Below are positions 3,198 through 60,871 of a DNA stretch of 60,871 bases, piece after piece. The notes below the pieces were generated by a model that made no database searches, was not told where the DNA came from, and worked only from the letters and a program-made list of their open reading frames with translations. Numbering within the stretch: position 1 is the first letter of the stretch; each line of letters opens with the position of its first letter. The translations under genes and the position numbers were made by a program. Origin of the DNA: a virus; the IMG/VR virus record IMGVR_UViG_3300006033_000003; one strand, given 5' to 3'.

Positions 3198-3670
3198 TGG
3201 ACAAGTTTCAAATCCCGCCCGACAGCGCGGGCTACTCGGTCACGGACGGCAAGGAGGTCATCGCCATTCAGCTGGACGGCGGTGCCGCCCGCTACCGCCG
3301 GGACATCCTCAACGCCAACTCGAAGGTCACTTGTCAGTGGTCCTTCGACCGCGATGAGTACCAGTACATGCGCTCATTCTACAAGACCGCAACCAGCAAC
3401 GGCTCCCTTCCGTTCCTGATCGACCTGGCGCTGGACGAACCCACCCTGACGGAGCACCAAGCCTACTTCGTCCCCGGGTCCGTGATGCTCCGGGAGCAGC
3501 GGGGCCATCTGTACGTGGTGTCCGCCGAACTGGACGTGAAGCCCATCCCGCGTGACGCCGCCTATGACGAAGGAGTGGTGATGATCTGGAGCAACTACGC
3601 TCCGGAGCCCGCCGTGTTCCTGAACGCCCTGGAGCAACTGGTCAACGTGGACCTCCCGGAGGCAATGTAA
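3197..3670 (+). CDS. minor tail protein (position of lambda gpM / distal tail)
   Basis: 157-aa ORF whose ATG overlaps the tape-measure stop (TAATG). The call rests on synteny only. Confidence 0.45.
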   Translation: MDKFQIPPDSAGYSVTDGKEVIAIQLDGGAARYRRDILNANSKVTCQWSFDRDEYQYMRSFYKTATSNGSLPFLIDLALDEPTLTEHQAYFVPGSVMLREQRGHLYVVSAELDVKPIPRDAAYDEGVVMIWSNYAPEPAVFLNALEQLVNVDLPEAM

Positions 3671-3671
3671 C

Positions 3672-4499
3672 ATGAGCCGCTTCAGTGAGTTCTTCCTCAA
3701 CTCCCGGTCCTCCGTGGTCCAGCTGGAACTGATCCAAATCAGCCACCCCAGCTTCTCGAAGGACTACCGCCTGGTGCGCAACGCGGTGAACGGGGTGACG
3801 GTGAACGGCTTGGGCCAGTACGGTCGAAACCTGTTCAACGTCTCCGCGTCCGACAACGTGGCTGGCTACTACATAAGCCATACGGGAACGCTGACGGCGG
3901 ACCCCAACTACAACACCACGGGGTTCATTCCCGTTCTACCGGGCCAGACCTACTCTGCCAGCTACAACAACATGAGGTCCTTCTATGGACCCAACAAGCA
4001 ATTTGTCACCGGAAACCCCCTGGGGAGCCCCGCAACCTTCACCGTTCCGGAGGGTTGCTATTGGGTTCGAGCTACGGTGTATGTGAGCTCTTGGTCCACG
4101 TTTGTGCTGGCGCAGGGCTCCTCCGCCGGGGACTTCACGCCCTGGGGTCAGGCCAGCTTCGACTACTACCCGATGAAGATTGAAAACAACGGAAGCCGGG
4201 ATGACCTGGATCAATCCTTCACCTTCTCCTGGGGTGACTTGGGCGAAGTCCTGCCGACCGAACTGGACCGCGTGGCCAGATCCGGGGGCTTCGGGTTCAA
4301 GCCTCAAGTTGTGTACCACACCTACAGGTCTGACGACACGACCGCTTCGCTGTTTGGGCCCGTGGTCATGGAGGTTGAATCCTTCGCCTTCAACAGGGAC
4401 GGCTCCACGTTCACGGCCAAGGCCCCTTCGCTGAACATCAACAAGACCGGGGAAATCTACACCCTGGAGCGGTTCCCGATGCTGCGAGGCTTCCTGTGA
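3672..4499 (+). CDS. minor tail protein (gpL/DUF1833-like) with an inserted carbohydrate-binding-like module
   Basis: The N-terminus (VVQLELIQISHPSF..YRLV) and C-terminus (FTFSWGDLG...FGFKPQVVYHTYRSDD...) look like a tail-tip protein. The middle ~110 aa (GYYISHTGTL..GFIPVLPGQTYSASY..FYGPNKQFV..TFTVPEGCYWVRATV) matches the module duplicated in CDS 7732-9087. Confidence 0.5.
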   Translation: MSRFSEFFLNSRSSVVQLELIQISHPSFSKDYRLVRNAVNGVTVNGLGQYGRNLFNVSASDNVAGYYISHTGTLTADPNYNTTGFIPVLPGQTYSASYNNMRSFYGPNKQFVTGNPLGSPATFTVPEGCYWVRATVYVSSWSTFVLAQGSSAGDFTPWGQASFDYYPMKIENNGSRDDLDQSFTFSWGDLGEVLPTELDRVARSGGFGFKPQVVYHTYRSDDTTASLFGPVVMEVESFAFNRDGSTFTAKAPSLNINKTGEIYTLERFPMLRGFL

Positions 4500-4852
4500 G
4501 CCTTGATTCCTTCTTTGATAGGCGGTACAATCGTGACACGTACAACTGTGCTCACTTTGCTGTGGAAGTGTGGGAAGCCCTGACTGGTCAGAATATCGCC
4601 CAGGAGCTGACCGGCTTCCTTCGGCCCGTTGCTGAACGAAGAACGGACCCCGGACTGCGCAGGACGTTCCGCAAGCTGACCGCTCCGGAGACGCCCTGCC
4701 TGGTCCTGATGCAGCGAAACCGGAGCACGCCGCACGTGGGGGTGTACGTTCGGGGGAACGTCATCCATATCCACGAGAACGGAGTTGAGTGCCTTCCCCC
4801 GGAGATTGCCACACGAGGGTTTGCCCGCATAGGATACTACACACCATGTTGA
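4496..4852 (+). CDS. tail tip NlpC/P60-like cysteine peptidase (lambda gpK C-terminal-like)
   Basis: GTG start overlaps the upstream TGA. Cys motif YNCAHFAVEVW, then His residues in TPHVGVYVRGNVIHIHENG, in the order expected for an NlpC/P60 catalytic Cys-His-His. Sits in the lambda K position. Confidence 0.6.
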   Translation: MSLDSFFDRRYNRDTYNCAHFAVEVWEALTGQNIAQELTGFLRPVAERRTDPGLRRTFRKLTAPETPCLVLMQRNRSTPHVGVYVRGNVIHIHENGVECLPPEIATRGFARIGYYTPC

Positions 4853-9104: not shown

Positions 9105-12041
9105 ATGTCTCTCTTGTCTCCCACCCGCATCAAAGCAATGCCCGTCAACGAGCGGATGCAGCTTGTGTCCACCGCGACTTCGGCGGTGTACACCAACCTG
9201 AACGTCGAAATTCAAAAAGACCTCACCCTGGTGGTTGTCAACTCGAACTCCAACACGGACTACGCCGGGGCCACCCTTTCCCTTACCGGGACCAAGCTGA
9301 ATAACGCGGGAGGTTTTTGGTTCACCTCCGCCCTCTCCCCTATTCAGGGGGGGGAACTGACCAACAACGTGCTGTCTCTCAAGCGTGGAACCACCACCCT
9401 GAAGGTATCTTCGGTCAACCTGTCGGAGTACAAAACCATCCGCCTGGACGTTACTGGCACGGCAGACTCCACCGTGAACGTCTATGCTATCTGGGACGAT
9501 GCTGCCCCCCTGGGCGATTGGATCACAGTTAGCGCCTCCGCTCCTCTGTCCAAGTTCAAAACCACCGAAAAGAACTGGAAATTGACCATCATCCCCAAAG
9601 GGGTCGATGACAACAACTTGGTCCGCGTGTACACTACGAAAAACGGCGGGGTGTGGTCCAGCTCCGACCTTCTGTCCAAATACCCGCTGACGCAGGTGGA
9701 CAACTACGTGTACATCACCACCCCCACTGAAATCTACCTCAACAACATCTACCAACTGGCGGAAGTTCTGCTCATCGTGAGCTGCACAGGCACTGCGACC
9801 GCTGCCGTCAAGGTTGAGTCTCCGGACGAACCCGTGGATGCGTCGGAGTTCTACAAAAAGCTGTTCACCACTGCGGTGAACAGCGGTTCCGCTTACAATT
9901 TCGTTCCCGACCTGCGGGCAACCCACGTCCTGTGCCGGATTGACAGCACTCTGGTTTCTGGCGGGTCCGCCGTGGTCCACCTATACCCGCGAAGCACTGA
10001 CAATCTGTCTTTGTCTGCGTTGTTCAATGAGCCCGGGTCCTCCTCAGCTCCGTCCAACTCCGTCAGTATCACCACGAGCGACACACGCTACCTCTACCTG
10101 CCCCGGACCGTCCAGCTGGGCAAGGTTCACGCGGATTGCGTCATGACCGGCACCGGGAACTCGGTGCGGGTTTCGATGGCCAACTATTTTGGCGAACTGC
10201 CCAAGGCGGCGGAAGCTGCTGCCGGTGCTGTGACCTCCAACCTCTACTCGGGGGAGGGCTTCAGCGTCGATCGGCACGCAACTGCCCGGCAGTTTGCTGC
10301 TTACGAAAACTGGACGGCCAGCGTCAGTTTGTCGGACGTGCTCACCGTGTCGGTCGGCTCCAACTCCGCTCAAGTCTCACTTTCCGCTCTCCCGGGTTGG
10401 AAGTCGGGCGACACCATTGGCGCCATGGGCTTCATTCCCTACCGCCAGGGCGGCCCAACTGCCGCCAACTACAGCCGCGAAACCGCCATGCGGCTGTGTT
10501 TCTTCACGCGACTGGGCAACATTTACCACAACTACCCGGCTGCAGCTTCGGACGATTCGACCACTTCGGGGGGCATGGGGGCCTTCGACCTGTCTGCGGT
10601 CTATGAGCCCGTGGTATGGTCTGGCGGCACCGTGCTCTCGTCTGAGCGCATCCCGTCGAACAACCCCGCGTTGACGGCGGATGAGAAAAAGCTGTACCGC
10701 TACGAACCTGGTTTGCCTTCCTGGAACTACAACCAACACACGAACAACGTGGGCGGCCTGAAGGCGGACGGTTCCGCATATGGCGGTGGCGGACTGCCCC
10801 CGGTGATGGACAAAAACGGACTCAAGCTGATCCGGATGGTCCACCCGTTCGAGTTCGGAACCAATCCACAAGACGCATCCAAGCCCTACCAAATGTCGGG
10901 CTACCTGTCCAACCCCTTCTCGGTGAAGCCCAAGTGTACCATCTACACCCCCTACAACGGCCTCAACGTCTGCAAAAACGTAGTCTTGGGGACAACTGAC
11001 GGCGGACGTATCTGGGTGGTCCTCCACGAGTTGGGCTGCAACTCCGTCCAGGCCATCTGCGGCAACAATTTCGATTACTCCGCCGTTGGTGCTTACACGT
11101 CGGGCGCATTGTCAGTCGTGAAGCGCACCTACATTTATCCGACCTCCTCGGTGAAGGACCCGGTCAATTGCTTCCAGTACGCCGATCCTATCAGCGTCAC
11201 CGCGATCACGACCACCGGCGGCAAGGCTTCCGTCACTACCTCTACCCCCCACGGATTCACCACGGGCGACCTGATCTGTTTCAAGAAAAACAGCTCAGGC
11301 AATTACGACTTCCTGGAGAACAGCGTCACGGTCGGCAATGCCGCCGCCTTCTCCAGCAACAGTGCGGGTGATGGCCGCTTCTACCGCGTGAAGGTCACAA
11401 GCACCACCACGTTCGAGTTGCTCCAAAACTACAACGGGGTGGACGAGAAAATCGCCACCCATCACATCCATAGTAGCAACCCGGCGAAGGACGGCACCTT
11501 GATTTGCTGCGGGGAGAAGTACCCGGCGGGTTGGATCCTGTTTGTGCGTATCCCCCAAATTGATGATTTTGAATATTTCTACATCTACCAGTACCGCATT
11601 TCAAACCGTTATATTTTCCGGCTGAACAGCTCCGAAACGGCCATGCAGCGGGCGGTGGGTATGGTTTGGAGGGACGACCAAGAACAGACATTCTTGTTTG
11701 CTTCCGATGAGCAAAACATTGCCCCCCGGCCCGTGACTATTCCGGGACGGGATGCCGCTGCAGTCCCCAGTCGCAATACCGCTGGAGTGTTCTTGGGCAA
11801 AATGGCGGACATTGACGACATCACCAAAGCCTACGTGGTCTGCGAAATGGAGGAAGCCTCCCTGGGCCTCATAAATGCTCAAAACATGTTTGTAGTTGTC
11901 GGGATGTCTCGCAAAACCTACCTGTCTGCAGACGGAAAGAACTGGGTCAGCTTCCCGCTCATCTGCCAATACGTGGGGGAAAGCAACGGAGCCCTGTATC
12001 TTCGGGCAGACACCTACGTGTACCGCGTGACGAAAACTTGA
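9105..12041 (+). CDS. large tail-associated protein, possibly a beta-propeller (Asp-box-like motifs)
   Basis: 978-aa ORF, the last of the tail module. One good Asp-box-like motif (TTDGGRIW) and two degenerate ones (TKNGGVWS, SADGKNWV). No other motif recognised. Confidence 0.4.
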   Translation: MSLLSPTRIKAMPVNERMQLVSTATSAVYTNLNVEIQKDLTLVVVNSNSNTDYAGATLSLTGTKLNNAGGFWFTSALSPIQGGELTNNVLSLKRGTTTLKVSSVNLSEYKTIRLDVTGTADSTVNVYAIWDDAAPLGDWITVSASAPLSKFKTTEKNWKLTIIPKGVDDNNLVRVYTTKNGGVWSSSDLLSKYPLTQVDNYVYITTPTEIYLNNIYQLAEVLLIVSCTGTATAAVKVESPDEPVDASEFYKKLFTTAVNSGSAYNFVPDLRATHVLCRIDSTLVSGGSAVVHLYPRSTDNLSLSALFNEPGSSSAPSNSVSITTSDTRYLYLPRTVQLGKVHADCVMTGTGNSVRVSMANYFGELPKAAEAAAGAVTSNLYSGEGFSVDRHATARQFAAYENWTASVSLSDVLTVSVGSNSAQVSLSALPGWKSGDTIGAMGFIPYRQGGPTAANYSRETAMRLCFFTRLGNIYHNYPAAASDDSTTSGGMGAFDLSAVYEPVVWSGGTVLSSERIPSNNPALTADEKKLYRYEPGLPSWNYNQHTNNVGGLKADGSAYGGGGLPPVMDKNGLKLIRMVHPFEFGTNPQDASKPYQMSGYLSNPFSVKPKCTIYTPYNGLNVCKNVVLGTTDGGRIWVVLHELGCNSVQAICGNNFDYSAVGAYTSGALSVVKRTYIYPTSSVKDPVNCFQYADPISVTAITTTGGKASVTTSTPHGFTTGDLICFKKNSSGNYDFLENSVTVGNAAAFSSNSAGDGRFYRVKVTSTTTFELLQNYNGVDEKIATHHIHSSNPAKDGTLICCGEKYPAGWILFVRIPQIDDFEYFYIYQYRISNRYIFRLNSSETAMQRAVGMVWRDDQEQTFLFASDEQNIAPRPVTIPGRDAAAVPSRNTAGVFLGKMADIDDITKAYVVCEMEEASLGLINAQNMFVVVGMSRKTYLSADGKNWVSFPLICQYVGESNGALYLRADTYVYRVTKT

Positions 12042-12077: not shown

Positions 12078-12134
12078 CCCAAAGGAGGGGTGACGTTATA
12101 CAATACCGGAACTTTTGAAACGGAGAATCACCCC

Positions 12135-12497
12135 ATGTCCCTTACGCCCAAGGAAATCGAGGAGCTGGCCGTGTCCGCCGCGACACGTGCAGCCAAAGCC
12201 GAAGTTGAAGAAGCAGCGGAACGCGCCGCTGAAGCCGCCGCCCGAAAGGTGACGCTGACCCCGGACGAAGTGAGTCACATGGTGGCCGAAGCCGTCCGAC
12301 AGACCCTGATCCAGATGGGCATTGACATGTCCGACCCGCTGGCGATGCAGCGGGACTTCCAGCACCTTCGTCAATGGCGGGAGTCCGGGGAGGACCTGAA
12401 GAAGAAGGGCACCGTGGCCCTCCTCGGCATCTTCCTCTCGGGCCTAGGCACGCTGGTCCTCCTGGGCCTGAAGGAGTTTCTGAGCAAGGCCCCCTGA
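12135..12497 (+). CDS. hypothetical protein with a C-terminal transmembrane helix
   Basis: ATG preceded by GGAG (aaacggagaatcacccc). Ala/Glu-rich helical N-terminus; C-terminal TM segment VALLGIFLSGLGTLVLLGL. Confidence 0.55.
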   Translation: MSLTPKEIEELAVSAATRAAKAEVEEAAERAAEAAARKVTLTPDEVSHMVAEAVRQTLIQMGIDMSDPLAMQRDFQHLRQWRESGEDLKKKGTVALLGIFLSGLGTLVLLGLKEFLSKAP

Positions 12498-12813
12498 GCT
12501 GCGCTTACCTTCGACCGCGTGCGCTTACCTTCGGAGCTATCCCAAGCGCACGTAAGTTCCAGCCCCCGTGGGAATTACTTACCTTACTTGGGATACTTAC
12601 CTTGAAATGCGGTTCGCCCGATAAATCGGCGGGAGGCCCAGGGAAATCCTCCTGGGGCTTTCAAGGTAAGTAAGGTAAGTAAGTTAAGTAATAATAATAA
12701 TAAATATATATAAGTCTATGATTTTATGGAACTTCTGTGCGCTTACCTTTACAAGAAACTGACTGGTCGAAGGTAAGCGCAACGCTGTGTTTCTGGGCGT
12801 AAGGTAAGCGCAA
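12498..12813. repeat. AT-rich iteron / inverted-repeat island A (paralogue of 45811-46140)
   Basis: - Five copies of GAAGGTAAGCGC or its complement: 12501, 12521, 12739, 12769, 12800.
- Perfect 16-bp inverted repeat, 12501-12516 / 12765-12780.
- Perfect 15-bp inverted repeat, 12575-12589 / 12668-12682.
- Pure A/T run at 12689-12713.
- 54-bp block 12660-12713 identical to 45985-46038. Confidence 0.9.
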
Positions 12814-12820
12814 GTGTTCG

Positions 12821-12852
12821 GGCTTCCCTCGGAAGTCTCCCCGGGCTATACT
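12821..12852 (+). promoter_or_regulatory. promoter candidate, class 2 (GGCTTCCC-N18-TATACT)
   Basis: gGGCTTCCCtcggaagtctccccgggcTATACTtcttc. The extended -10 CTATACTTCTTC matches the class 1 sites. It lies 43 nt upstream of the SNF2 start. Confidence 0.55.
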
Positions 12853-12894
12853 TCTTCAGCCGAACCGAAACGCATTCAGAAAAGGAGTCCACGC

Positions 12895-14610
12895 GTGGAA
12901 TATCAGTTCAAGACCGCCCCCTTCAACCACCAGAAGGAGGAGTGGGAGCGCAGCCGGGAGGAAATCGCCCGGGGCATCTTCTGGGAACAGGGCACCGGGA
13001 AGTCCAAGCTGACCATCGACACCGCCTGCTGGCTGTGGCGCCGGGGCCTCATCGACGGGGTGCTGGTGGTCGCACCGAACGGGGTGCACCGCAACTGGAC
13101 TGAGAAGGAAATCCCGGATCACATACCGGACGAGGTGATTGGGCACGTCCGCGCCTTCCATTACCAGTCCCCCCGGGCGGACACGAAGTGGCACAAGCAG
13201 GCGGTCAAGGCCGTCATTGAGCACAAGGGCTTCGCGTGGCTGACCATCAGCTATGACGCCTTCACAACCGCCGCCGGGAAGCGTGCGCTGATCGACTTCT
13301 TCGACAAGCGCCGCCTCCTGTACGTCCTGGATGAGGCCCACTACATCAAGACCCCAACGGCGGAGCGCACCAAGTCCATCCTCCGCTCCGCGAAGTACGC
13401 CCCCTTCAGACGCATCCTGACCGGGACCCCGATTGCGCAGGGTCCCTTCGACGCCTACAGCCAGATCAAGTTCCTGTATGACGACTACTGGAAGAAGGCC
13501 GGGTTGGGCACCTTCACGGAGTTCAAGGCCCACTTCGGGGTGTTCGAGAAGGTCTGGAACCCGAACGTCACCCGCTCCTTCGACCCGGTGAAGCAACGCT
13601 GGGTGGACAGTGACGGCTCATACGTGGACGTGCTCAAGGGCTACCGCCGCCTGGACGAACTGAACGCCCTCCTGCAGCCCGTCTCCTCCCGCGTGACGAA
13701 GGATGACGTGCTGGACCTCCCGCCCAAGCTGTACAGCAAGCGCCCGTTCCCGATGACGGAGGAGCAGCGGAAGCTGTACCGCCAGATGAAGGATGAATTC
13801 ATCGTCTGGCTTGAGCTGGGCGGAGCGGAGAAGGAAGCCGCCGCCCTTCAGGGTTCCCTGCCGCTGGAGGACGCCTGCCCGACTTGTCACGGCAAGCGGG
13901 AGTTGGAGGTGGACGGCTACATCTACCCGTGCCCCGACTGCGCGGACACTCCGGACCTTGGGCAGAACGGCACCACCCCCGTCATCGCCGCGCTGGCCAT
14001 GACCCGGCTCCTCCGCCTTCAGCAGATCACCTGTGGGTATCTGCCCACGGACGATGAAAGTGAGCCCATGTACGTCATCCCGGGGACGAACCGCCGCCGG
14101 GAGCTGCTTTGCGACCTGGTTGAAGAAGCGCAGCACAAGGTTATTGTCTGGGCCCGGTTCCAGCTGGACATCACGCTCATCCTGGAGGAGCTGCGCCGCC
14201 GGGGCATCCGCGCCGTCCGCTATGACGGCCAGGTGAACGATGACGAACGGGCGGAGGCCAAAGCCCTGTTCCAAGGGGAGCGGACGCTGTATGACGGAGC
14301 GCAGGTGATTGGGCGGGAAGCCGTCCCGCCGGAGGAGCAGGCCAAGGTGTTCGTGGGCAACCCCGCCGCCGGGGCTACGGGCCTGACATTGACTGCCGCC
14401 AAGACCGTCATTTATTATTCCAACAGCTTCAAGTTGATCGACCGCCTACAATCGGAGGACCGCGCCCACCGCATCGGTCAGGACAACAGCGTGCTGTACA
14501 TCGACCTGGTGGCGGAGGACTCCGTGGATGAGAAGGTTGTCGAAGCCTTGAGAAACAAGTTCAATGTGGCGTCCCAGATCACTGGCGACCGCCTGAAGGA
14601 ATGGCTATGA
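12895..14610 (+). CDS. SNF2-family helicase/ATPase with an inserted zinc ribbon
   Basis: GTG at 12895 lies 7 nt after AAAGGAG; the track ORF extends further upstream to 12814. Motifs: GTGKS, DEAH (VLDEAHYIK), TGTPI, QSEDRAHRIGQ. A CPTCHGK...CPDC insertion sits between the two RecA-like lobes. Confidence 0.85.
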   Translation: MEYQFKTAPFNHQKEEWERSREEIARGIFWEQGTGKSKLTIDTACWLWRRGLIDGVLVVAPNGVHRNWTEKEIPDHIPDEVIGHVRAFHYQSPRADTKWHKQAVKAVIEHKGFAWLTISYDAFTTAAGKRALIDFFDKRRLLYVLDEAHYIKTPTAERTKSILRSAKYAPFRRILTGTPIAQGPFDAYSQIKFLYDDYWKKAGLGTFTEFKAHFGVFEKVWNPNVTRSFDPVKQRWVDSDGSYVDVLKGYRRLDELNALLQPVSSRVTKDDVLDLPPKLYSKRPFPMTEEQRKLYRQMKDEFIVWLELGGAEKEAAALQGSLPLEDACPTCHGKRELEVDGYIYPCPDCADTPDLGQNGTTPVIAALAMTRLLRLQQITCGYLPTDDESEPMYVIPGTNRRRELLCDLVEEAQHKVIVWARFQLDITLILEELRRRGIRAVRYDGQVNDDERAEAKALFQGERTLYDGAQVIGREAVPPEEQAKVFVGNPAAGATGLTLTAAKTVIYYSNSFKLIDRLQSEDRAHRIGQDNSVLYIDLVAEDSVDEKVVEALRNKFNVASQITGDRLKEWL

Positions 14611-20023: not shown

Positions 20024-20073
20024 GGGCGGACAACTAGGGGTTTTCCCTACCCCAACAAAAAAGTTGTCCGCCC
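20024..20073 (+). terminator. long-stem hairpin after the RNR gene (terminator-like)
   Basis: Perfect 12-bp stem GGGCGGACAACT / AGTTGTCCGCCC around a 26-nt loop with an inner GGGG/CCCC hairpin. A T-rich sequence (actttacttttt) follows. Confidence 0.55.
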
Positions 20074-20076
20074 ACT

Positions 20077-20105
20077 TTACTTTTTCGCATGAATGGCACT
20101 ATACT
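20077..20105 (+). promoter_or_regulatory. promoter candidate, class 1 (TTACTT-N17-TATACT)
   Basis: cTTTACTTTTTCGcatgaatgGCACTATACTTCTTC. Shares the CTTTACTT..GCACTATACTTCTTC frame with 34835 and 40385. Heads the DNA-modification block. Confidence 0.65.
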
Positions 20106-20155
20106 TCTTCTCACGGTCGAACAACGAACCGCAACCCTCAGAAATGGAGCTCATC

Positions 20156-31451: not shown

Positions 31452-31842
31452 AGCCGCGATGTGGGACGCCCTCCGCCCGGTGATCAAGCACCTTGATCCC
31501 GTGCGCGTGGAGAACCCCGCTGGGCCGGGGACTCCGGACGTCAACTACATCGAGGGTTGGGTGGAGCTGAAATATGCGGAGCAGTGGCCCCCACGGGGCG
31601 GACCGCTTCGGATTGATCACTTCACCCAACAGCAACGGGTCTGGCTCACCCAACGCCGGCATGCCGGCGGGCGGGCCTTCCTTCTCCTGAAGGTTGGCGA
31701 GAATGAATGGTTGCTGTTCGACGGAGCGGTGGCCGCGAAGGTCCTGGGCCACGTGGAGCAGGACAAATTGTACCGGGCGTGCCTGGCCCGCTGGACCAGG
31801 AAGCCCAAGACTGAGGAGATTTGTAGATGGCTGCAGAACTGA
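31444..31842 (+). CDS. VRR-NUC / PD-(D/E)xK nuclease
   Basis: GTPDVNYIEGWVELKY (D...ExK) followed by FTQQQRVWL...GGRAFLLL, the VRR-NUC pattern. Confidence 0.6.
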   Translation: MSEAAMWDALRPVIKHLDPVRVENPAGPGTPDVNYIEGWVELKYAEQWPPRGGPLRIDHFTQQQRVWLTQRRHAGGRAFLLLKVGENEWLLFDGAVAAKVLGHVEQDKLYRACLARWTRKPKTEEICRWLQN

Positions 31843-32156
31843 CGTTGAGCCGGGGGGAAGCCCTCCTGGTTGAGCGCCGCCGCCGGGGCCTGAATCAGGT
31901 CCTGGCCGCTGGTGAGTGGAAGGTCCACCCGGACAAGTACCGGGAGTGGGAAGCGGACCGCCGGGACGATACCCCGGAGGTGGGGGTGGGCGAACTGAAG
32001 CCGCATGAGGTTTGCTATCTGAAGCGCCGCCGCTCGGGCAAGACCCAGCGCGAAATCGCCGCTGCCCTTGGGCTGACCCGCCTGTGGGTGATCATGATGG
32101 AGGACGGCAAGGCCCCCGTGGACCGGCTTGTTGAGTATTGGGGAGCCAACGCATGA
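31827..32156 (+). CDS. helix-turn-helix DNA-binding protein
   Basis: SGKTQREIAAALGLTRLWVIMMEDG is an XRE-like HTH. Confidence 0.55.
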   Translation: MAAELTLSRGEALLVERRRRGLNQVLAAGEWKVHPDKYREWEADRRDDTPEVGVGELKPHEVCYLKRRRSGKTQREIAAALGLTRLWVIMMEDGKAPVDRLVEYWGANA

Positions 32157-34594
32157 ACCGTTTTGGGGAGGAGTTCACCAAGCCGCGCCCCCTTCCGGAG
32201 CACGACACGCAAGCCGCCGTCCGCTTCCTGAAGCGGTGGTGCCCAGAAGGTCCCTGGGTTCTCACGTCCATCATCCCGGACGGCAAGACCGACACCAGAA
32301 CCTTCCAACCGGACGCCTGGCGAGAAGCCGCTGAATGGATTGAGTCCAACCAGGGCAAAAACAACGTGTACTTCCACGTCAACCCGGTCCGCCGGTCGAT
32401 GACGGTGAAGGCCAGCAAGGAGGACATTGCCCGCCTGTCCTGGCTCCACGTTGACATCGACCCCCGCGCCGGGGAGGACTTCGAGGAGGAGCGTGCCCGC
32501 GCCCTCCGGATGCTGAAGGAGTACACGCCCAAGCCCACCGTCATCGTTGACTCGGGCGGAGGCTTCCAGGGCTTCTGGAGGCTGTCCCCGTCCGAACGTC
32601 TGGAGATCAACGGGAGCATCACCAAGGCCCAGGAGTTGGAAGCCTTCAACATCCAGCTGGAGAAGGTTTTTCAAGCGGACCACTGCCACAACGTGGACCG
32701 CATCATGCGCCTTCCGGGCACGATCAACATGCCGACCGCGAAGAAGCGCAAGAAGGGCCGCTGGCCCGCGCTGGCCACGCTGGTTGAGTGGACTGACGTC
32801 AGCTACCCGATTGAGCAATTCACCGCCGCGCCCCGCGTCCAGATGTCGGAGCCCGGACTGGCGGGCGGACGCCCGAAGGTGAAGATCACAGGCAACGTCC
32901 CGGACATCGGGACGGAGGAGCTGAAGGACTGGGCGAACGAACACGGCAAGGCCATCAGCGATCACTGCCTGGCCCTCATCGCCACGGGCCAGGACCCGCT
33001 GGACCCGACCAAGTACCCCTCCCGCTCCGAAGCCTTGTTCAAGGTCTGCTGCGATCTGGTCCGGGCGGAGGTTCCTGATGAGATGATCTTTGCGGTGATC
33101 ACGGGCTCCAACGAGATTGCCACCAGCGTCAGAGACAAGCCGAACTGGGAAGCCTACGCCCTGCGCCAGATCGAACGGGCGAAGGAGGAAGCGATTGACC
33201 CGATGCTGCGCAAGCTCAACGAGAAGCACGCAGTCATCAGCGACATTGGTGGGAAGTGCCGCATCATATCGGAGGTGATGGACCTGTCCCTGAACCGGAC
33301 CAAAATCAGCAAGCAGTCCTTCGAGGACTTCCGCAACCGCTACCGCCACATCAAGGTGGTGGTTGGGCACTCGGAGGACGGACGCCCGATTGAGAAGGCC
33401 GCTGGTGCCTTCTGGATTGATCACCCTCAGCGCCGACAGTATGAGACAATTCTGTTCGCCCCGGGCCGGGAGACGGAGGACGCCTACAACCTGTGGCGGG
33501 GCTTCGCGTGCAACTCCCTGCCGGGCCGCAAGCATGAATCCTTCCTCCTCCACGTGCGCGACAACGTGTGCTCGGGAAACCCGGAGCACTACAACTACCT
33601 GGTGGGCTGGATGGCCCGGATGATCCAACACCCGGACGGCCCGGGGGAAGTGGCCGTGGTCCTTCGCGGGAAGCGGGGCACTGGCAAGTCCTTCTTCGCC
33701 AAGATTCTCGGGGCGATGTTTGGGCGTCACTTCCTTCAGGTGTCGGACTCGAAGCACCTGGTGGGCTCCTTCAACGCCCACCTCCGCGATACGGTCCTGC
33801 TGTTCGGTGATGAGGCATTCTTCGCCGGGGACAAGAAGCACGAAAGCGTGCTCAAGACCCTGATCACGGAGGAGCACCTGGTCATCGAAGGGAAGGGCGT
33901 GGACGCCGAAGCCGCGCCCAACTACGTCCACCTGGTCCTGGCCTCGAACGAGGACTGGGTGGTGCCCGCCGGTCTGGATGAGCGCCGCTTCTTTGTCATG
34001 GAGGTGGGGGACGGGAAGAAGCAGGATCACGGCTATTTCAAGGCCATCAAGGATGACCTGGATGACGGTGGCCTGGAGAACTTGTTGCACTACCTGATGA
34101 CCTATGACCTCAGCGCCTTCGAGGTCCGTCAGGTGCCGCAGACCGCCGCGCTGCAGGACCAGAAGATCATGAGCATGGCCCCGGAAGTCCAGTGGATGTA
34201 TGAGAAGCTGTGGGAAGGCCGGATGCTCAAGACCGACCAGGACTGGAAGGGCCGCGTGCTGAAGGAAAGCCTGTACAACGACTACATCAACGACCTCCGG
34301 GACCAAGGCCGGAACTTCCGCCTGAGCCAGACCAGCTTCGGCAAGTTCCTGGCCCGCTCCTTCCCGCCGGGGTGGCCGAAGTCGAAGCAGGAGATGGTGG
34401 ACGTGCCCTGGGTGAATGAACACGGCTTCGAGGTCATGATCAAGAAGCGGGCATATGTGTACCACCTCCCCTCCTTGTCGGAGGTCCGGGCGTATTGGGA
34501 CGCGCAGATGGGCGGACCCTTCGACTGGCCCCGGGTGGACCCGCTTCAGGAAAGTCTGAGCGAACCGCCCAAGAAGGACGCGCCGCCGTTCTGA
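32153..34594 (+). CDS. bifunctional primase-polymerase / SF3 helicase
   Basis: ATGA-coupled ATG with a GGGGAG SD. N-terminal prim-pol signature (HVDIDPR, VDSGGGFQGFW). C-terminal Walker A LRGKRGTGKSFF and Walker B VLLFGDEAF (D5/P4-like). Confidence 0.85.
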   Translation: MNRFGEEFTKPRPLPEHDTQAAVRFLKRWCPEGPWVLTSIIPDGKTDTRTFQPDAWREAAEWIESNQGKNNVYFHVNPVRRSMTVKASKEDIARLSWLHVDIDPRAGEDFEEERARALRMLKEYTPKPTVIVDSGGGFQGFWRLSPSERLEINGSITKAQELEAFNIQLEKVFQADHCHNVDRIMRLPGTINMPTAKKRKKGRWPALATLVEWTDVSYPIEQFTAAPRVQMSEPGLAGGRPKVKITGNVPDIGTEELKDWANEHGKAISDHCLALIATGQDPLDPTKYPSRSEALFKVCCDLVRAEVPDEMIFAVITGSNEIATSVRDKPNWEAYALRQIERAKEEAIDPMLRKLNEKHAVISDIGGKCRIISEVMDLSLNRTKISKQSFEDFRNRYRHIKVVVGHSEDGRPIEKAAGAFWIDHPQRRQYETILFAPGRETEDAYNLWRGFACNSLPGRKHESFLLHVRDNVCSGNPEHYNYLVGWMARMIQHPDGPGEVAVVLRGKRGTGKSFFAKILGAMFGRHFLQVSDSKHLVGSFNAHLRDTVLLFGDEAFFAGDKKHESVLKTLITEEHLVIEGKGVDAEAAPNYVHLVLASNEDWVVPAGLDERRFFVMEVGDGKKQDHGYFKAIKDDLDDGGLENLLHYLMTYDLSAFEVRQVPQTAALQDQKIMSMAPEVQWMYEKLWEGRMLKTDQDWKGRVLKESLYNDYINDLRDQGRNFRLSQTSFGKFLARSFPPGWPKSKQEMVDVPWVNEHGFEVMIKKRAYVYHLPSLSEVRAYWDAQMGGPFDWPRVDPLQESLSEPPKKDAPPF

Positions 34595-34817: not shown

Positions 34818-34834
34818 TTATTTTCTTTGACACT

Positions 34835-34863
34835 TTACTTCTTCGGGTTTTCCGCACTATACT
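34835..34863 (+). promoter_or_regulatory. promoter candidate, class 1 (TTACTT-N17-TATACT)
   Basis: CTTTACTTCTTCGGGttttccGCACTATACTTCTTCG. Near-identical over ~40 nt to 40381-40420. Confidence 0.65.
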
Positions 34864-34891
34864 TCTTCGCACCACAACACGGAGATTGCAA

Positions 34892-40358: not shown

Positions 40359-40384
40359 AGCCGAAGCGGGGACTTGTCCACGCT

Positions 40385-40413
40385 TTACTTCTTCGGGTCC
40401 CTCGCACTATACT
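40385..40413 (+). promoter_or_regulatory. promoter candidate, class 1 (TTACTT-N17-TATACT)
   Basis: CTTTACTTCTTCGGGtccctcGCACTATACTTCTTCG. Confidence 0.65.
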
Positions 40414-40447
40414 TCTTCGACCGTAAACACAGAAATGGAGCTGCATT

Positions 40448-44812: not shown

Positions 44813-45174
44813 CATTCCGCGTCCCTGAGAAGTTCCGCGTGCGCACTGGCCGCATTGCGTCTGACGAAACCTTCGGCAACAACGGAGCCTTCGAGCTATT
44901 GCTGAAGACCCCGGGCAAGCCCCGGCTGTTCGCCATCGCCTCTGATCAGGCCGGTTGGGAACACGTGTCAGTCTCCCGGAAGGACCGCTGCCCGACCTGG
45001 GATGAGATGTGCGCGGTCAAGGACCTGTTCTGGACGGAGGAGGACGCCGTGGTGCAATTCCACCCGCCCCGCTCCAACTACGTGAACAACCACCCCTTCT
45101 GCCTCCACCTCTGGAAGCCCGCTGATGGGAGCCTGCTGCTGCCGCCGTCCATCCTGGTAGGATATACCACATGA
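44809..45174 (+). CDS. hypothetical protein
   Basis: ATGA-coupled. 121 aa. Conserved-looking core GWEHVSVS..RCPTWDEMC..HPP. Confidence 0.5.
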   Translation: MTFRVPEKFRVRTGRIASDETFGNNGAFELLLKTPGKPRLFAIASDQAGWEHVSVSRKDRCPTWDEMCAVKDLFWTEEDAVVQFHPPRSNYVNNHPFCLHLWKPADGSLLLPPSILVGYTT

Positions 45175-45812
45175 CGCACTCCTTCTCCTCCCTCCAACAG
45201 TTCCGCCAGTGCCCGCACCTGTACTTCCGGCTGCGCATCGCCCGGGACGTGACGATGGAGGAGACGGAGGAAGCCCGCCGGGGCGTCCGCGTCCACGCCC
45301 AGCTGAAGGACCGCCTGAAGAAGGGGAGCCCGCTGCCCCCGGAGCTGACGGACGCGGAACGCCTCTGCGCCCAACTCGAACGGATTGCCCAACGCAGCGA
45401 TCCGATGCGCGTGGAGGAGGAACTGCGGGCCGGAGACTTCGCGGGCAAACTGGACGTGGCCCTCATCGCGGAACGCGCCGCACTGGTGGTGGACTGGAAA
45501 ACCGGCAAGCCCCACGCGGACCCGGACCAACTGAAGATGTACGCCCTGCTCACGTTCGAGAACTTCCCCCGCGTGGACGAAGTGGTGGGCAAGTACGTCT
45601 GGCTGTCCACCGGGGAGATCACCACGCACAAGTTCCTCCGGGCGGACCTCGAAGCACTGCGCACGGAGTTCGAGACCACGGTGGGCGAAATCGCACGGGC
45701 GGAGGCCGAAGGCTACTGGTCACAACGTGGCAACCCCGCCTGTCCCCGGTGCCCCGTACTGGAATGCCGGTTCAACACGTCCCGGGATGCCCGCCCCGCG
45801 CCCCTGTTCTGA
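45171..45812 (+). CDS. Cas4/RecB-like PD-(D/E)xK exonuclease with Fe-S cysteines
   Basis: N-terminal Cys (FRQCPHLYF), DVALI...VVDWKTGK (D...DxK), QLKMYAL (QxxxY), C-terminal CPRCPVLEC. Confidence 0.7.
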   Translation: MTHSFSSLQQFRQCPHLYFRLRIARDVTMEETEEARRGVRVHAQLKDRLKKGSPLPPELTDAERLCAQLERIAQRSDPMRVEEELRAGDFAGKLDVALIAERAALVVDWKTGKPHADPDQLKMYALLTFENFPRVDEVVGKYVWLSTGEITTHKFLRADLEALRTEFETTVGEIARAEAEGYWSQRGNPACPRCPVLECRFNTSRDARPAPLF

Positions 45813-46140
45813 AGGTAAGCGTGCGCTTGGGGTTACCAGATTTTCAGGAATGAAGGTAAGCGCACGTAAGTCCTTGATCCGCTTGGGCTTTTATTATTAT
45901 TACTTACCTTACTTGGGTTACTTGGGTTGAAAAGAACTTCGCCCGACAAATCGACCGGAGGCCCAGCAGAAGTCCTCCGGCAAATTCAAGGTAAGTAAGG
46001 TAAGTAAGTTAAGTAATAATAATAATAAATATATATAAAGGGTTGATTTTATGGACTTTTTGTGCGCTTACCTTTACAAGATTTTGACTGTGTGAAGGTA
46101 AGTAAAAACTGGTCAAACCAAGCGGAAGGTAAGCGCAGTG
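45811..46140. repeat. AT-rich iteron / inverted-repeat island B (paralogue of 12498-12813)
   Basis: GAAGGTAAGCGC-type 12-mers at 45811, 45852, 46064 (rc), 46094, 46125. Inverted repeat 45900-45914 / 45993-46007. Colinear with island A at a constant offset of 33325 nt across 45900-46105. 54-bp identical block at 45985-46038. Confidence 0.9.
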
Positions 46141-46205: not shown

Positions 46206-46237
46206 GCCTTGTCCTGAACACACCCTCCCGCTATACT
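46206..46237 (+). promoter_or_regulatory. promoter candidate (TTGTCC-N17-TATACT) heading the packaging/structural module
   Basis: gccTTGTCCtgaacacaccctcccgcTATACTcttg. About 65 nt upstream of terS. Confidence 0.45.
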
Positions 46238-46300
46238 CTTGTCAACATTGTCCCTGGGCGTGAGGCCCCGGGACGTTCAGACATGTCGAAGGAGGACGTG

Positions 46301-46822
46301 ATGTCCAAACCGATTCAGAAGATGAAGCCGAAGCCCCCCGTGGAGTTCACGGAGGAGCGCAAAATTCAATACCTGCACCACCTGCGCCAGACGGGCCTTG
46401 TGTACCGCGCTGCCGAACTGGTGGGCATCGAGCCGGGGACCGTCTCGAAGCACCGGAAGGTTGACCCGGAGTTCGATGAGGCCTGCGAGATTGCGAAGCA
46501 GATGTGGGTGGACGAAGTGCTGGTGGCGGAAGCCGTCCGCCGCGCCACCAAGGGAACCTCCAAGCCGATCCTGGGCGGGAAGTTCAAGGACGAAATCGTG
46601 GCCTATGAGCAGGTGTACAGCGACAGCCTCATGGCCATGCTTCTCCGCGCCAACCGGGGTGAGTTCAAGGACAAGGACCTGTCCGGGGGCGGAGCCTACA
46701 GCAACGCCGGGGCCGGGGTCCTGATCATTCCCGCGTCTCCGGACGGCTTGAGCCAGTGGCAGGAGAAGTTCGGTGAGTTGGCGAAGGGGACGCACGGGCG
46801 TCCGGAGGGGGAGAAGAAATGA
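46301..46822 (+). CDS. terS: terminase small subunit
   Basis: ATG 7 nt after AGGAGG. HTH-like YLHHLRQTGLVYRAAELVGIEPGTVSKHRK. Directly precedes terL and is coupled to it. Confidence 0.65.
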   Translation: MSKPIQKMKPKPPVEFTEERKIQYLHHLRQTGLVYRAAELVGIEPGTVSKHRKVDPEFDEACEIAKQMWVDEVLVAEAVRRATKGTSKPILGGKFKDEIVAYEQVYSDSLMAMLLRANRGEFKDKDLSGGGAYSNAGAGVLIIPASPDGLSQWQEKFGELAKGTHGRPEGEKK

Positions 46823-60354: not shown

Positions 60355-60775
60355 TTTCAGCCGCCGCATCACCGTTCGAGGACGCGGGATTGCGGAGAAC
60401 ACCGACCGATTGGTGCGCAAGGTTGCCCTTGCCGCAGACCAAGCCGTTGTGATGGGCACCCCGGTGGATACTGGGCGTGCCCGTTCCAACTGGATTGCTC
60501 AGATTGGTTCCGCTTCCTCCGGAACCATTGAGCCCTACGCGCCCGGAGAAGCCGGGAGCACCGCCGGGGCGAACTCCCAAGCCGCTATTGACCAAGCCGA
60601 AGCGGTCATCTCAGGGTACAATAATGGCCAGGAGATTCACATCACCAACAACCTCCCGTACATCCAACGCCTGAATGACGGGTACTCCGCCCAAGCCCCC
60701 GCGAACTTCGTGGAGCAGGCAGTGGCGGAGGCAGCGCAGGTTGTCCAGTTCGGGCGGATTGTTGACGGGGGCTGA
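60338..60775 (+). CDS. HK97 gp10-like neck/tail component
   Basis: ...ADQAVVMGTPVDTGRARSNWIAQIG... is the PxDTGxLRxS-type motif of the HK97 gp10 family. The GTG start is uncertain. The gene ends 2 nt before the tape-measure ATG (60778, equivalent to 27). Confidence 0.5.
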   Translation: MPSLNDFSRRITVRGRGIAENTDRLVRKVALAADQAVVMGTPVDTGRARSNWIAQIGSASSGTIEPYAPGEAGSTAGANSQAAIDQAEAVISGYNNGQEIHITNNLPYIQRLNDGYSAQAPANFVEQAVAEAAQVVQFGRIVDGG

Positions 60776-60871
60776 GGATGGCTACTGAACGCATTGACAT
60801 AGTCATCACTGAACGAGGTTCCCGGGTTGTTCAGCGGAACCTCCAGGACATCGGAGGGACGGCCCGGGCCG
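60752..60871. repeat. terminal overlap, exact copy of 1-120
   Basis: See feature 1-120. Confidence 0.95.

Follow-up and report, generated by a model that had tools for sequence, protein, structure and literature searches.

Background

The closest described counterparts of the elements reported here are two intergenic control regions of Pseudomonas phage YuA, one preceding the helicase gene gp02 and the other preceding gp50, the small terminase gene (terS). The elements themselves are two related non-coding islands, A and B, in a 60,871-nt stretch of viral DNA (IMG/VR record IMGVR_UViG_3300006033_000003), which was analysed at its full length and is referred to below as the window; island A lies upstream of an SNF2 helicase gene and island B upstream of terS. 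The YuA homologues are already known, having been annotated (GenBank; Ceyssens et al. 2008) and transcript-mapped (Putzeys et al. 2024). The GenBank record (NC_010116) lists promoter-trap promoters at 489-568 and 33014-33160, before gp02 and gp50 respectively, with the description 'medium activity, clear -35/-10'. The supplementary tables of the study by ONT-cappable-seq (cappable sequencing with Oxford Nanopore Technologies; bioRxiv 10.1101/2023.10.13.562163, the preprint of PMC10914365) place a leftward start, P002, at 612(-), with 'antisense' transcripts running from 612 to 411 (201 nt) and from 612 to 60. The same tables give starts P003 at 814(+) and P014 at 33417(+), which lie downstream of islands A and B of YuA, and 3' ends T004 at 471(+) and T003 at 411(-).

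Island B of the window is probably a paralogue of island A, each being a transcription-control region of about 330-400 bp that heads one gene block; this level of confidence refers to the transcription-control explanation as a whole. In the YuA annotation and transcript-map literature, where the 2008 description is known through its GenBank record and citation, there appears to be no description of the two regions as paralogues that evolve in concert, of the construction of face-to-face promoters from one repeat or of the reading of the boxes as hairpins. A full-text literature search with the core sequence returned nothing relevant.

Comparison with the YuA control regions

As in the YuA-type control regions of Yuavirus/Mesyanzhinovviridae, island A lies between the last tail or lysis-side gene and the SNF2 helicase gene, and island B between accessory genes and terS. 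Box for box, both islands could be aligned to 400-860 and 32830-33510 of YuA, which are intergenic (NC_010116). A MAFFT alignment comprised 33 distinct islands from YuA, M6, Chuck, Bordetella phage FP1 and IMG/VR contigs, of which 14 paired islands were displayed, and the islands aligned over their whole length with the same order of elements as the YuA-type regions. This order begins with GCGCTT boxes ending in ACC, GGG, GAC or AGG, part of them inverted, followed by a left arm of three 9-mers (TTACTTNNN), a box (TTCGCCCGAYAAATCG) and one or two GC-rich hairpins with a GCCCAR loop. It continues with the right arm, which consists of three 9-mers (NNNAAGTAA) and has GTTAAG at its end, and with an AT-rich microsatellite, an inverted box pair, a TATACT promoter and the first gene of the block.

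The window and YuA have in common their synteny, the boxes, the left arm, the CGCCCGAYAAATCG box, the GC hairpin, the right arm, the microsatellite, the box hairpin and the TATACT promoter. They differ in sequence, with 23-83% identity depending on the segment, and YuA has a longer central hairpin region. The AT tracts of the two YuA islands are unlike each other, (AAG)5 in A and (TATC)5 in B, whereas the window has (TAA)5 in both islands, and much of its island A right of centre is of the B type.

The alignment placed the -35 and -10 signals of both YuA trap promoters within the left arms, so the left arm is taken to hold a rightward promoter. The sequence upstream of P002 was checked and is the right arm of YuA island A read leftwards (TTAACT, 17-18 nt, TTAAAC/TAAACT), which makes the right arm a promoter directed against all of the genes. 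By this analysis, the arms of the window islands are two putative promoters placed face to face, an arrangement that was not seen in the first-pass annotation of this DNA, which had been made from the sequence without database searches. That annotation had proposed a TATACT promoter downstream of each island. The hexamer was found at 12847 and 46232, and both sites align with YuA P003 and P014, which are themselves TATACT promoters with mapped starts; the promoter before terS, with the upstream sequence ...CACGCTATACTCGCGGCA, is the one that aligns with P014.

The upstream box hairpin of window island B has its positional homologue in YuA island A at 416-464 (GCGCTTGGG...CCCAAGCGC), and T004 and T003 sit 5-7 nt outside the two ends of this hairpin. 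The boxes are for this reason regarded as stem halves of hairpins, which mark where the transcripts of either strand end. The sites that had been listed earlier as being of GAAGGTAAGCGC type are mostly such stem halves, which had also gone unrecognised. Four explanations had been offered for the islands, namely dual origins, binding sites shared by a regulator of two transcription units, a terminase site with a decoy, and a miniature inverted-repeat transposable element (MITE)-like insertion. Transcription control has gained support from the YuA trap promoters and from the mapped starts and ends, and the MITE option has fallen away.

Sequence identity between islands A and B

A repeat search paired 12574-12777 with 45899-46102 as a direct repeat of 204 nt without gaps at a spacing of 33325, and a direct count gave 37 mismatches, or 81.9% identity. 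The colinear, gap-free copy at this offset and its 54-bp identical core, both described in the first-pass annotation, were thus borne out. The longest identical run was indeed 54 nt (12660-12713 = 45985-46038), and a run of at least this length would be met about once in 10^4 trials (P ~1e-4) if 37 mismatches were placed at random. Over the 200 nt on either side of the repeat, at the same offset, ungapped identity was 24-31%. The box TGTGCGCTTACCTTTACAAGA is the same in both islands, without mismatch, as had been claimed (12736-12756 = 46061-46081).

At no more than one mismatch, the GAAGGTAAGCGC motif had 12 matches in the window against 0.17 expected, and nine of the 12 were inside the islands. 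Five sites had been listed for island B, of which four (45811, 45852, 46064 on the minus strand, and 46125) hold at this threshold and the fifth, GAAGGTAAGTAA at 46094, has two mismatches. The left-hand sites of island A, at 12501 and 12521, lie on the minus strand and do run opposite to those of B, and the sizes given for the possible sub-circles, 33.3 kb and 27.4 kb, are arithmetically correct. The feature is real and non-random and, to judge by its homology with the YuA regions, functional.

Concerted evolution of the islands

Among the relatives collected, the right arm (about 30 nt) was the most conserved part of the islands, being nearly invariant, and the left arm varied; this large difference in variability argues for strong constraint on the right arm. 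The 21-mer AAGTAAGKTAAGTAAGTTAAG of the right arm recurs in every island collected, including that of a 67-kb contig with no more than 48% identity in terS. As this 21-mer was the pattern used to search for and extract the islands, its presence in them is recurrence and not independent conservation.

In the central segment, islands A and B of the window were 58% identical to each other and those of its nearest relative 100%, compared to 23-25% between the window and the YuA orthologues. For the segment comprising the right arm and the microsatellite, A and B were 100, 92, 94 and 89% identical within four genomes, and 70-72% identical in YuA, M6 and one further close relative. On the right side of the AT tract, island A of the window was nearer to YuA island B than to YuA island A (52% versus 35%). 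An identical A/B block of 27-86 nt was present in all nine of the genomes with both islands; it always included the right arm and differed in extent. The island B of Chuck has an (AAG) tract typical of island A, and both islands of an FP1-like genome carry (TATC)5.

The differing extent of the identical blocks, together with paralogues that are closer than orthologues, points to repeated short gene-conversion tracts between the islands. These patterns indicate that the 54-bp identity probably combines constraint on the right arm with a recent homogenisation of the remainder by A/B gene conversion. The first-pass annotation had suggested function or ongoing gene conversion as the cause, and conversion is now strongly supported by the within-genome A/B identity and by the identical blocks in 9/9 genomes.

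Structure of the hairpins and the AT tract

In RNA folding, the box pairs formed stems of 8-13 bp. For the downstream box hairpin, 80% of the cells were paired across 14 diverse islands, and 7 of the 11 pairs had changes on both sides. Its covariation was 0.38 compared to 0.22 in shuffles, none of 500 shuffles reaching 0.38, and registers slid by 1-3 columns paired at most 46%. The stem sequence of the central hairpin differs by lineage and its GCCCAR loop is kept. The two arms together make a large palindrome with a good DNA fold (z-scores -5.3 and -7.2). The idea that this is a cruciform or hairpin kept by selection was rejected: 77% of the palindrome was paired in 18 islands, a level reached by 110 of 500 shuffles, and the variable triplets were without compensation. 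Since its pairing is no better than that of shuffled controls, the arms are regarded as one motif in both orientations. Rfam gave no match on island B at E-values as high as 1, over the whole window no match reached the gathering score, and a transfer RNA search of the sequence found none.

Depending on the lineage, the AT tract is built of (TAA)n, (AAG)n or (TATC)5. Despite this replacement of the unit, the distance from GTTAAG to the last TATAxx is 18-21 nt in 15 of 19 distinct variants. The length of the tract (12689-12713 and 46014-46038 in the window, and in relatives) is held within about 2 nt in most variants. Being immediately upstream of the leftward -35, the tract may act as an upstream promoter (UP) element. 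Two other readings were discarded. If the tract were the spacer of a rightward promoter with TATAAA at its end, a usable -35 would be missing, and there is no rightward start at this place in YuA, the constant distance being suggestive; a DnaA-trio-like reading of (TAA)n/(AAG)n does not fit the (TATC)5 variants.

Organisation of the islands

The coordinates of the elements in the window are collected in Table 1. A close variant of the box TTCGCCCGACAAATCG was present in 14/14 paired A/B islands aligned, and in further relatives. Two similar small open reading frames (ORFs), MDFLCAYLYKILTV (46051-46095) and MELLCAYLYKKLTGRR (12726-12776), were rejected as coding sequences, the frame being broken in YuA (MAFLPA-stop) and absent in other relatives. 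These mini-ORFs overlap the downstream box hairpin, have two synonymous TTG/CTG differences and are probably non-coding. A site for integration host factor at AATCAACCCTTTA, on the minus strand of B, was also discarded, as by eye the motif is not kept in island A or in YuA.

Table 1. Elements of islands B and A and their neighbourhood, in window coordinates.
Feature	Position	Strand	Remarks
Further box GGTAAGCGT	45814-45822		Adjoins the stem of the B upstream box hairpin
B upstream box hairpin	45819-45867		Stems GCGCTTGGG (45823-45831) and GGTAAGCGC (45855-45863); fold -21.4 kcal/mol, z -2.9
B left arm	45891-45932	+	9-mers TTACTTACC / TTACTTGGG / TTACTTGGG at 45900-45926; inverted repeat
B left-arm promoter-like pair	TTACCT 45904-45909, 17 nt, TTGAAA 45927-45932	+	Aligned to -35/-10 of YuA trap fragment 33014-33160
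Conserved box TTCGCCCGACAAATCG	45938-45953	+	Just past the left-arm -10 of B
B central GC-rich hairpin	45955-45980		CCGGAGG-loop-CCTCCGG, conserved loop motif GCCCAG; RNA fold
B right arm	45984-46016	-	GGTAAGTAA, GGTAAGTAA, GTTAAGTAA
B right-arm leftward promoter (predicted)	TTAACT 46012-46007, 17 nt, TTGAAT 45989-45984	-	Predicted start near 45975
54-bp block	45985-46038		Same as 12660-12713; right arm and AT tract (TAA)5 A (TA)4 A
B AT-rich microsatellite tract	46014-46038		Upstream of the leftward promoter, in UP element position
B downstream box hairpin	46063-46137		GCGCTTACCTT (46064-) pairs with AAGGTAAGCGC (-46136); fold -27.6 kcal/mol, z -3.2
Inner partner GAAGGTAAGTAA of B downstream box hairpin	46094-46105		
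TATACT promoter ahead of terS	46209-46244	+	TTGTCC, 17 nt, TATACT (46232-46237); predicted start near 46244; promoter scan
Small terminase gene (terS)	46298-46822	+	First gene past island B; 48-88% amino-acid identity to loci ahead of the large terminase of relatives
GCGCTTACC boxes of A	12501 and 12521		
A upstream box hairpin	12517-12553		GTGCGCTT ... AAGCGCAC; fold -19.9 kcal/mol
A left arm	12574-12607	+	TTACCT (12579-12584), 17 nt, TTGAAA (12602-12607); inverted repeat; aligned to YuA trap fragment 489-568
A counterpart of the B box TTCGCCCGACAAATCG	12613-12628		GATAAATCG; alignment
A right arm and AT tract	12659-12713	-	Predicted leftward promoter TTAACT (12687-12682), 17 nt, TTGAAA (12664-12659); predicted start near 12650; YuA P002 homology
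A AT tract	12689-12713		Position counterpart of 46014-46038
A downstream box hairpin	12738-12781		11-bp perfect stem GCGCTTACCTT / AAGGTAAGCGC
Extra box of A	12800-12811		Downstream of the A downstream hairpin
TATACTTCTTC promoter before the SNF2 helicase gene	12847-12860	+	Aligned to YuA P003, start 814(+)

Proposed function

Island A would serve the SNF2 helicase/replication block and island B the terS/virion block. In each, the inverted arrays of the 9-bp repeat TTACTTNNN would form two promoters facing each other across a GC-rich hairpin of about 50 bp, the left one directed rightwards and the right one leftwards. The leftward promoter would oppose read-through from the preceding block, its short antisense RNA ending at the upstream hairpin, and the hairpins with GCGCTTNNN / NNNAAGCGC box stems would end, trim or protect transcripts coming from either side. 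A second box hairpin would follow, and then the TATACT promoter driving the downstream genes; this promoter and the left-arm promoter, of the host sigma-70 type, would start the transcription of the next block. The result would be an insulation in which the hairpins and the opposing leftward promoter shield each block from the preceding one, and the blocks could be timed separately. According to the YuA record and transcript map, the YuA left-arm promoter is active without phage proteins, and the TATACT promoters of YuA are classed as phage-specific (GenBank NC_010116; PMC10914365). We infer the insulator role of the islands, the putative promoter activity of the island B arms and the role of the central hairpin.

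Several observations weigh against this proposal. The promoter scan missed the arm hexamers TTACCT/TTGAAA and TTAACT/TTGAAT, which are poor consensus matches, and near island B it reported only TTGTCC-17-TATACT; the window arm promoters match the layout of YuA P002 but stay below the threshold of the consensus scan. In the YuA infection maps, the left arms of both islands are free of rightward starts and the arms of island B of starts of any kind, which might indicate that the B promoters are weak, conditional or silent. In the ONT-cappable-seq tables, no transcript ends were mapped at the upstream hairpin position of YuA island B, nor within its arms or hairpins, and because neither starts nor ends were mapped in these parts, the functions assigned to B rest on its paralogy with A. 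A terminator scan of both islands found no intrinsic terminator, the box hairpins being without a U-tract or T run, so the YuA 3' ends may reflect processing or non-canonical termination. Covariation of an inverted repeat would be expected equally for a palindromic protein-binding site. Finally, all functional support for the islands comes by homology, at about 60-80% island identity.

Coliphages 186 and P2 have face-to-face pR/pL promoter switches, and these resemble the islands in that two promoters face each other over a short distance. For LUZ19, and not for YuA, an antisense promoter was proposed to block elongation into the early genes on the circularised genome, and this promoter, P001, opposes the direction of the genes as the islands do (PMC10914365). 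The islands differ from these convergent systems in that their promoters are inverted copies of one repeat array and occur as two modules per genome; in addition, the relatives of the window phage are virulent, and face-to-face interference is here only proposed.

Paired cis elements past two early promoters are also known, as nutL/nutR in lambda and putL/putR in HK022. The likeness consists of an element with a box and a hairpin, present twice per genome and just downstream of a promoter. The islands differ in that the GCCCAR loop is without a known partner, and the element may go untranscribed in the rightward direction, as no rightward YuA start was mapped. No similarity of the islands to boxA/boxB or put RNAs was found, and there was no Rfam match.

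Alternative explanations

The explanations by operators, origins or a packaging site can coexist with a role in transcription. It is possible, if not expected, that a phage regulator of both blocks binds the boxes and 9-mers as its operators, the candidate being the HTH_31 protein (31827-32153, a homologue of YuA gp25), and that the inverted repeats are palindromic operators instead of RNA hairpins. The phage does encode this helix-turn-helix (HTH) protein, and the two islands hold at least nine GAAGGTAAGCGC-type boxes, far beyond the chance expectation given above. The variable triplet and the flank of the box are lineage-specific (ACC/GGG, AGG/GGG, GAC), yet common to A and B of a genome, as a shared regulator would have it. 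However, the half-sites are spaced by 17-50 nt, which is unusual for operators, and the variable triplets differ between the two arms. The YuA 3' ends fit an RNA hairpin, as on each strand they are placed 5-7 nt beyond the upstream inverted repeat.

It is rather unlikely that the islands are two replication origins, or an origin and its cis partner, in which the 9-mer arrays would be iterons, for example for the RepB-primase/DUF5906 helicase (32138-34591), the AT microsatellite would unwind, and the arm promoters would give transcriptional activation or an R-loop primer; such details are compatible with the transcription role. Short repeats in both orientations adjoin the 25 bp with the highest AT content in a genome of 63% GC, and the length of the AT tract is kept though its repeat unit changes. 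Island A is directly upstream of replication genes in a phage that has a fusion of a primase with a superfamily 3 (SF3)-type helicase, and a (AAGTAAGTT)n array with an AT tract recurs beside SNF2 helicase genes in phage contigs of 40-48% GC. The T4 origins ori(uvsY) and ori(34) combine a promoter with an unwinding element, and P4 has the two-locus arrangement ori/crr. The islands resemble these in having a promoter with an AT-rich tract, short repeats at two distant loci and a primase-helicase gene, and differ in that the AT tract is upstream, not downstream, of the one mapped promoter; their origin role is that of a candidate. Against it, the arrays coincide with a mapped YuA promoter and start and are thus already accounted for, the second copy precedes terS, and no covariation favoured a cruciform. 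The cumulative GC skew had no turning point at 12.7 or 46.0 kb and a minimum near 25-27 kb, but it is confounded as a test of origin because all genes are on one strand.

That island B is a pac site for headful packaging by the small terminase, with island A as a second or decoy site, is very improbable. Island B is immediately upstream of terS, the usual neighbourhood of pac, and this location applies to B only. In P1, pac consists of clusters of short repeats flanking a central region, and the repeat clusters around the centre of the islands resemble it. On the other hand, in every relative the helicase gene is preceded by an equally conserved copy, at a distance of 33 kb, the elements are already explained by mapped promoters and transcript ends, and the relatives are described as permuted without a fixed genome start (PMC11946847).

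There is virtually no case for a MITE-like element inserted twice, which the inverted-repeat arms and the two copies might recall, or for an assembly artefact: both copies are syntenic in 9/9 relatives with both regions recovered (48-95% protein identity), with just these two copies per genome, the flanks have diverged and are alignable only with their orthologues, and the nearest metagenomic relative has the same two islands. The first-pass annotation had named occurrence of the core in many unrelated contexts as a sign of mobility; a search of phage and host genomes found the 21-mer core to be syntenic in the family and absent from Pseudomonas and other plausible host genomes, its occurrences elsewhere being in 19 unrelated contigs of metagenome-assembled genomes (MAGs), and the matches outside the family were other phages' own arrays or simple repeats.

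Genome context and relatives

The ends of the window, 1-120 and 60752-60871, are an exact 120-bp repeat (repeat search, whole window). As this is most simply an assembly overlap, the assembly is taken to be a circle of 60,751 bp. A similar assembly repeat, of 127 bp, is reported for the related phage Lydia, and the relatives are described as having circularly permuted genomes with no defined start (PMC11946847). The terS/terL and helicase regions were about 80% identical to those of Pseudomonas Yuavirus phages (YuA, M6, MP1412 and many more), and the phage collection searched held no match nearer than these. The nearest relative was a 33.8-kb metagenomic viral contig, with 95% amino-acid identity in the helicase and 88% in terS. 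The terS gene is annotated as such in YuA and in Bordetella phage FP1.

Every long ORF tiling the genome is on the plus strand, in agreement with the one-strand genome described before. Island A is preceded by a small ORF (12090-12497) and followed by the SNF2 helicase gene (12895-14610); island B is preceded by a PD-(D/E)XK nuclease gene (45171-45812) and followed by terS. The islands have the lowest GC of all 400-nt windows of the genome (0.51 and 0.50 compared to about 0.63). They are not, as had been stated, at the only two module boundaries, since other intergenic promoter regions are present near 20.1, 34.8, 39.7 and 40.4 kb.

Promoter-like repeats of the form TTTACTTCTTCGG-N8-CACTATACTTCTTC were observed on the plus strand at 20072-20128, 34830-34886 and 40380-40436, and the TATACTTCTTC sequences at 12847, 14965, 22780, 31260 and 39703 belong with this promoter family. 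The family matches the YuA 'phage promoters' P010, P012 and P013, whose starts are mapped and which are inactive without phage factors. The halves of these repeats resemble a direct repeat of TWTACTTCTTC with a spacing of 22 nt. The HTH_31 protein gene overlaps the 5' part of the RepB-primase/DUF5906 (SF3-type) helicase gene; their YuA homologues are gp25 ('putative repressor') and gp26, and the two products are candidates for factors acting on the islands in trans.

In two relatives (L058 and L069), an extra ORF starting MMNPTGIYLITHRASGKRYVGKS lies between the TATACT promoter of island A and the helicase gene, about 700 nt upstream of the helicase match, and by eye this ORF is GIY-YIG homing endonuclease-like. 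In another relative (L063), the helicase match begins at residue 28 and is preceded by unrelated coding sequence.

Wider distribution

Arrays of (AAGTAAGTT)n beside an AT/TA tract, with inverted partners and hairpins of the same box, were also found in phage contigs of very different GC content: 40% (L093 at 3240-3450, and L110), 48% (L094, L099 and L113), 38% (L104 at 4280-4500) and 65% (L114 at 10850-11000). In two contigs (40% and 48% GC), the array is upstream of an SNF2 helicase gene, and in a third (38% GC) it is upstream of a pair of ORFs of 206 and 522 amino acids in the terS/terL position. The homology seen with these phages concerns the genes just named. These findings suggest that the module is older and more widely spread than the Yuavirus group. 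The 21-mer AAGGTAAGTAAGKTAAGTAAG occurs several times in single unrelated MAGs, namely of Peribacteraceae (L075, L084 and L085) and of Anaerolinea (L076, L079, L082 and L088), where it may be a simple-repeat family of its own.

Implications

Taken more broadly, and with little confidence, the islands may represent an ancient, self-homogenising cis-module common to a broad group of one-strand siphoviruses (38-65% GC), in which promoters made of inverted 9-bp arrays face each other across a hairpin with box hairpins flanking them. This module might serve as a directional insulator and timing switch, or double as paired transcription-activated origins, and through gene conversion its copies would stay adapted to a single factor acting in trans.

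With all genes running one way on a circularly permuted genome, transcription from block to block must be stopped, and the mechanism has rarely been worked out. Deletions might arise preferentially at the 54-bp direct repeat, a point of relevance to the stability of the genome and to its engineering. The islands also offer a clean example of two non-coding regions that evolve in concert at a distance of 33 kb, in a phage of the virulent type, and this implies frequent intragenomic recombination. They provide testable coordinates of boundary elements for the YuA group, including phages that are used in Pseudomonas phage-therapy cocktails.

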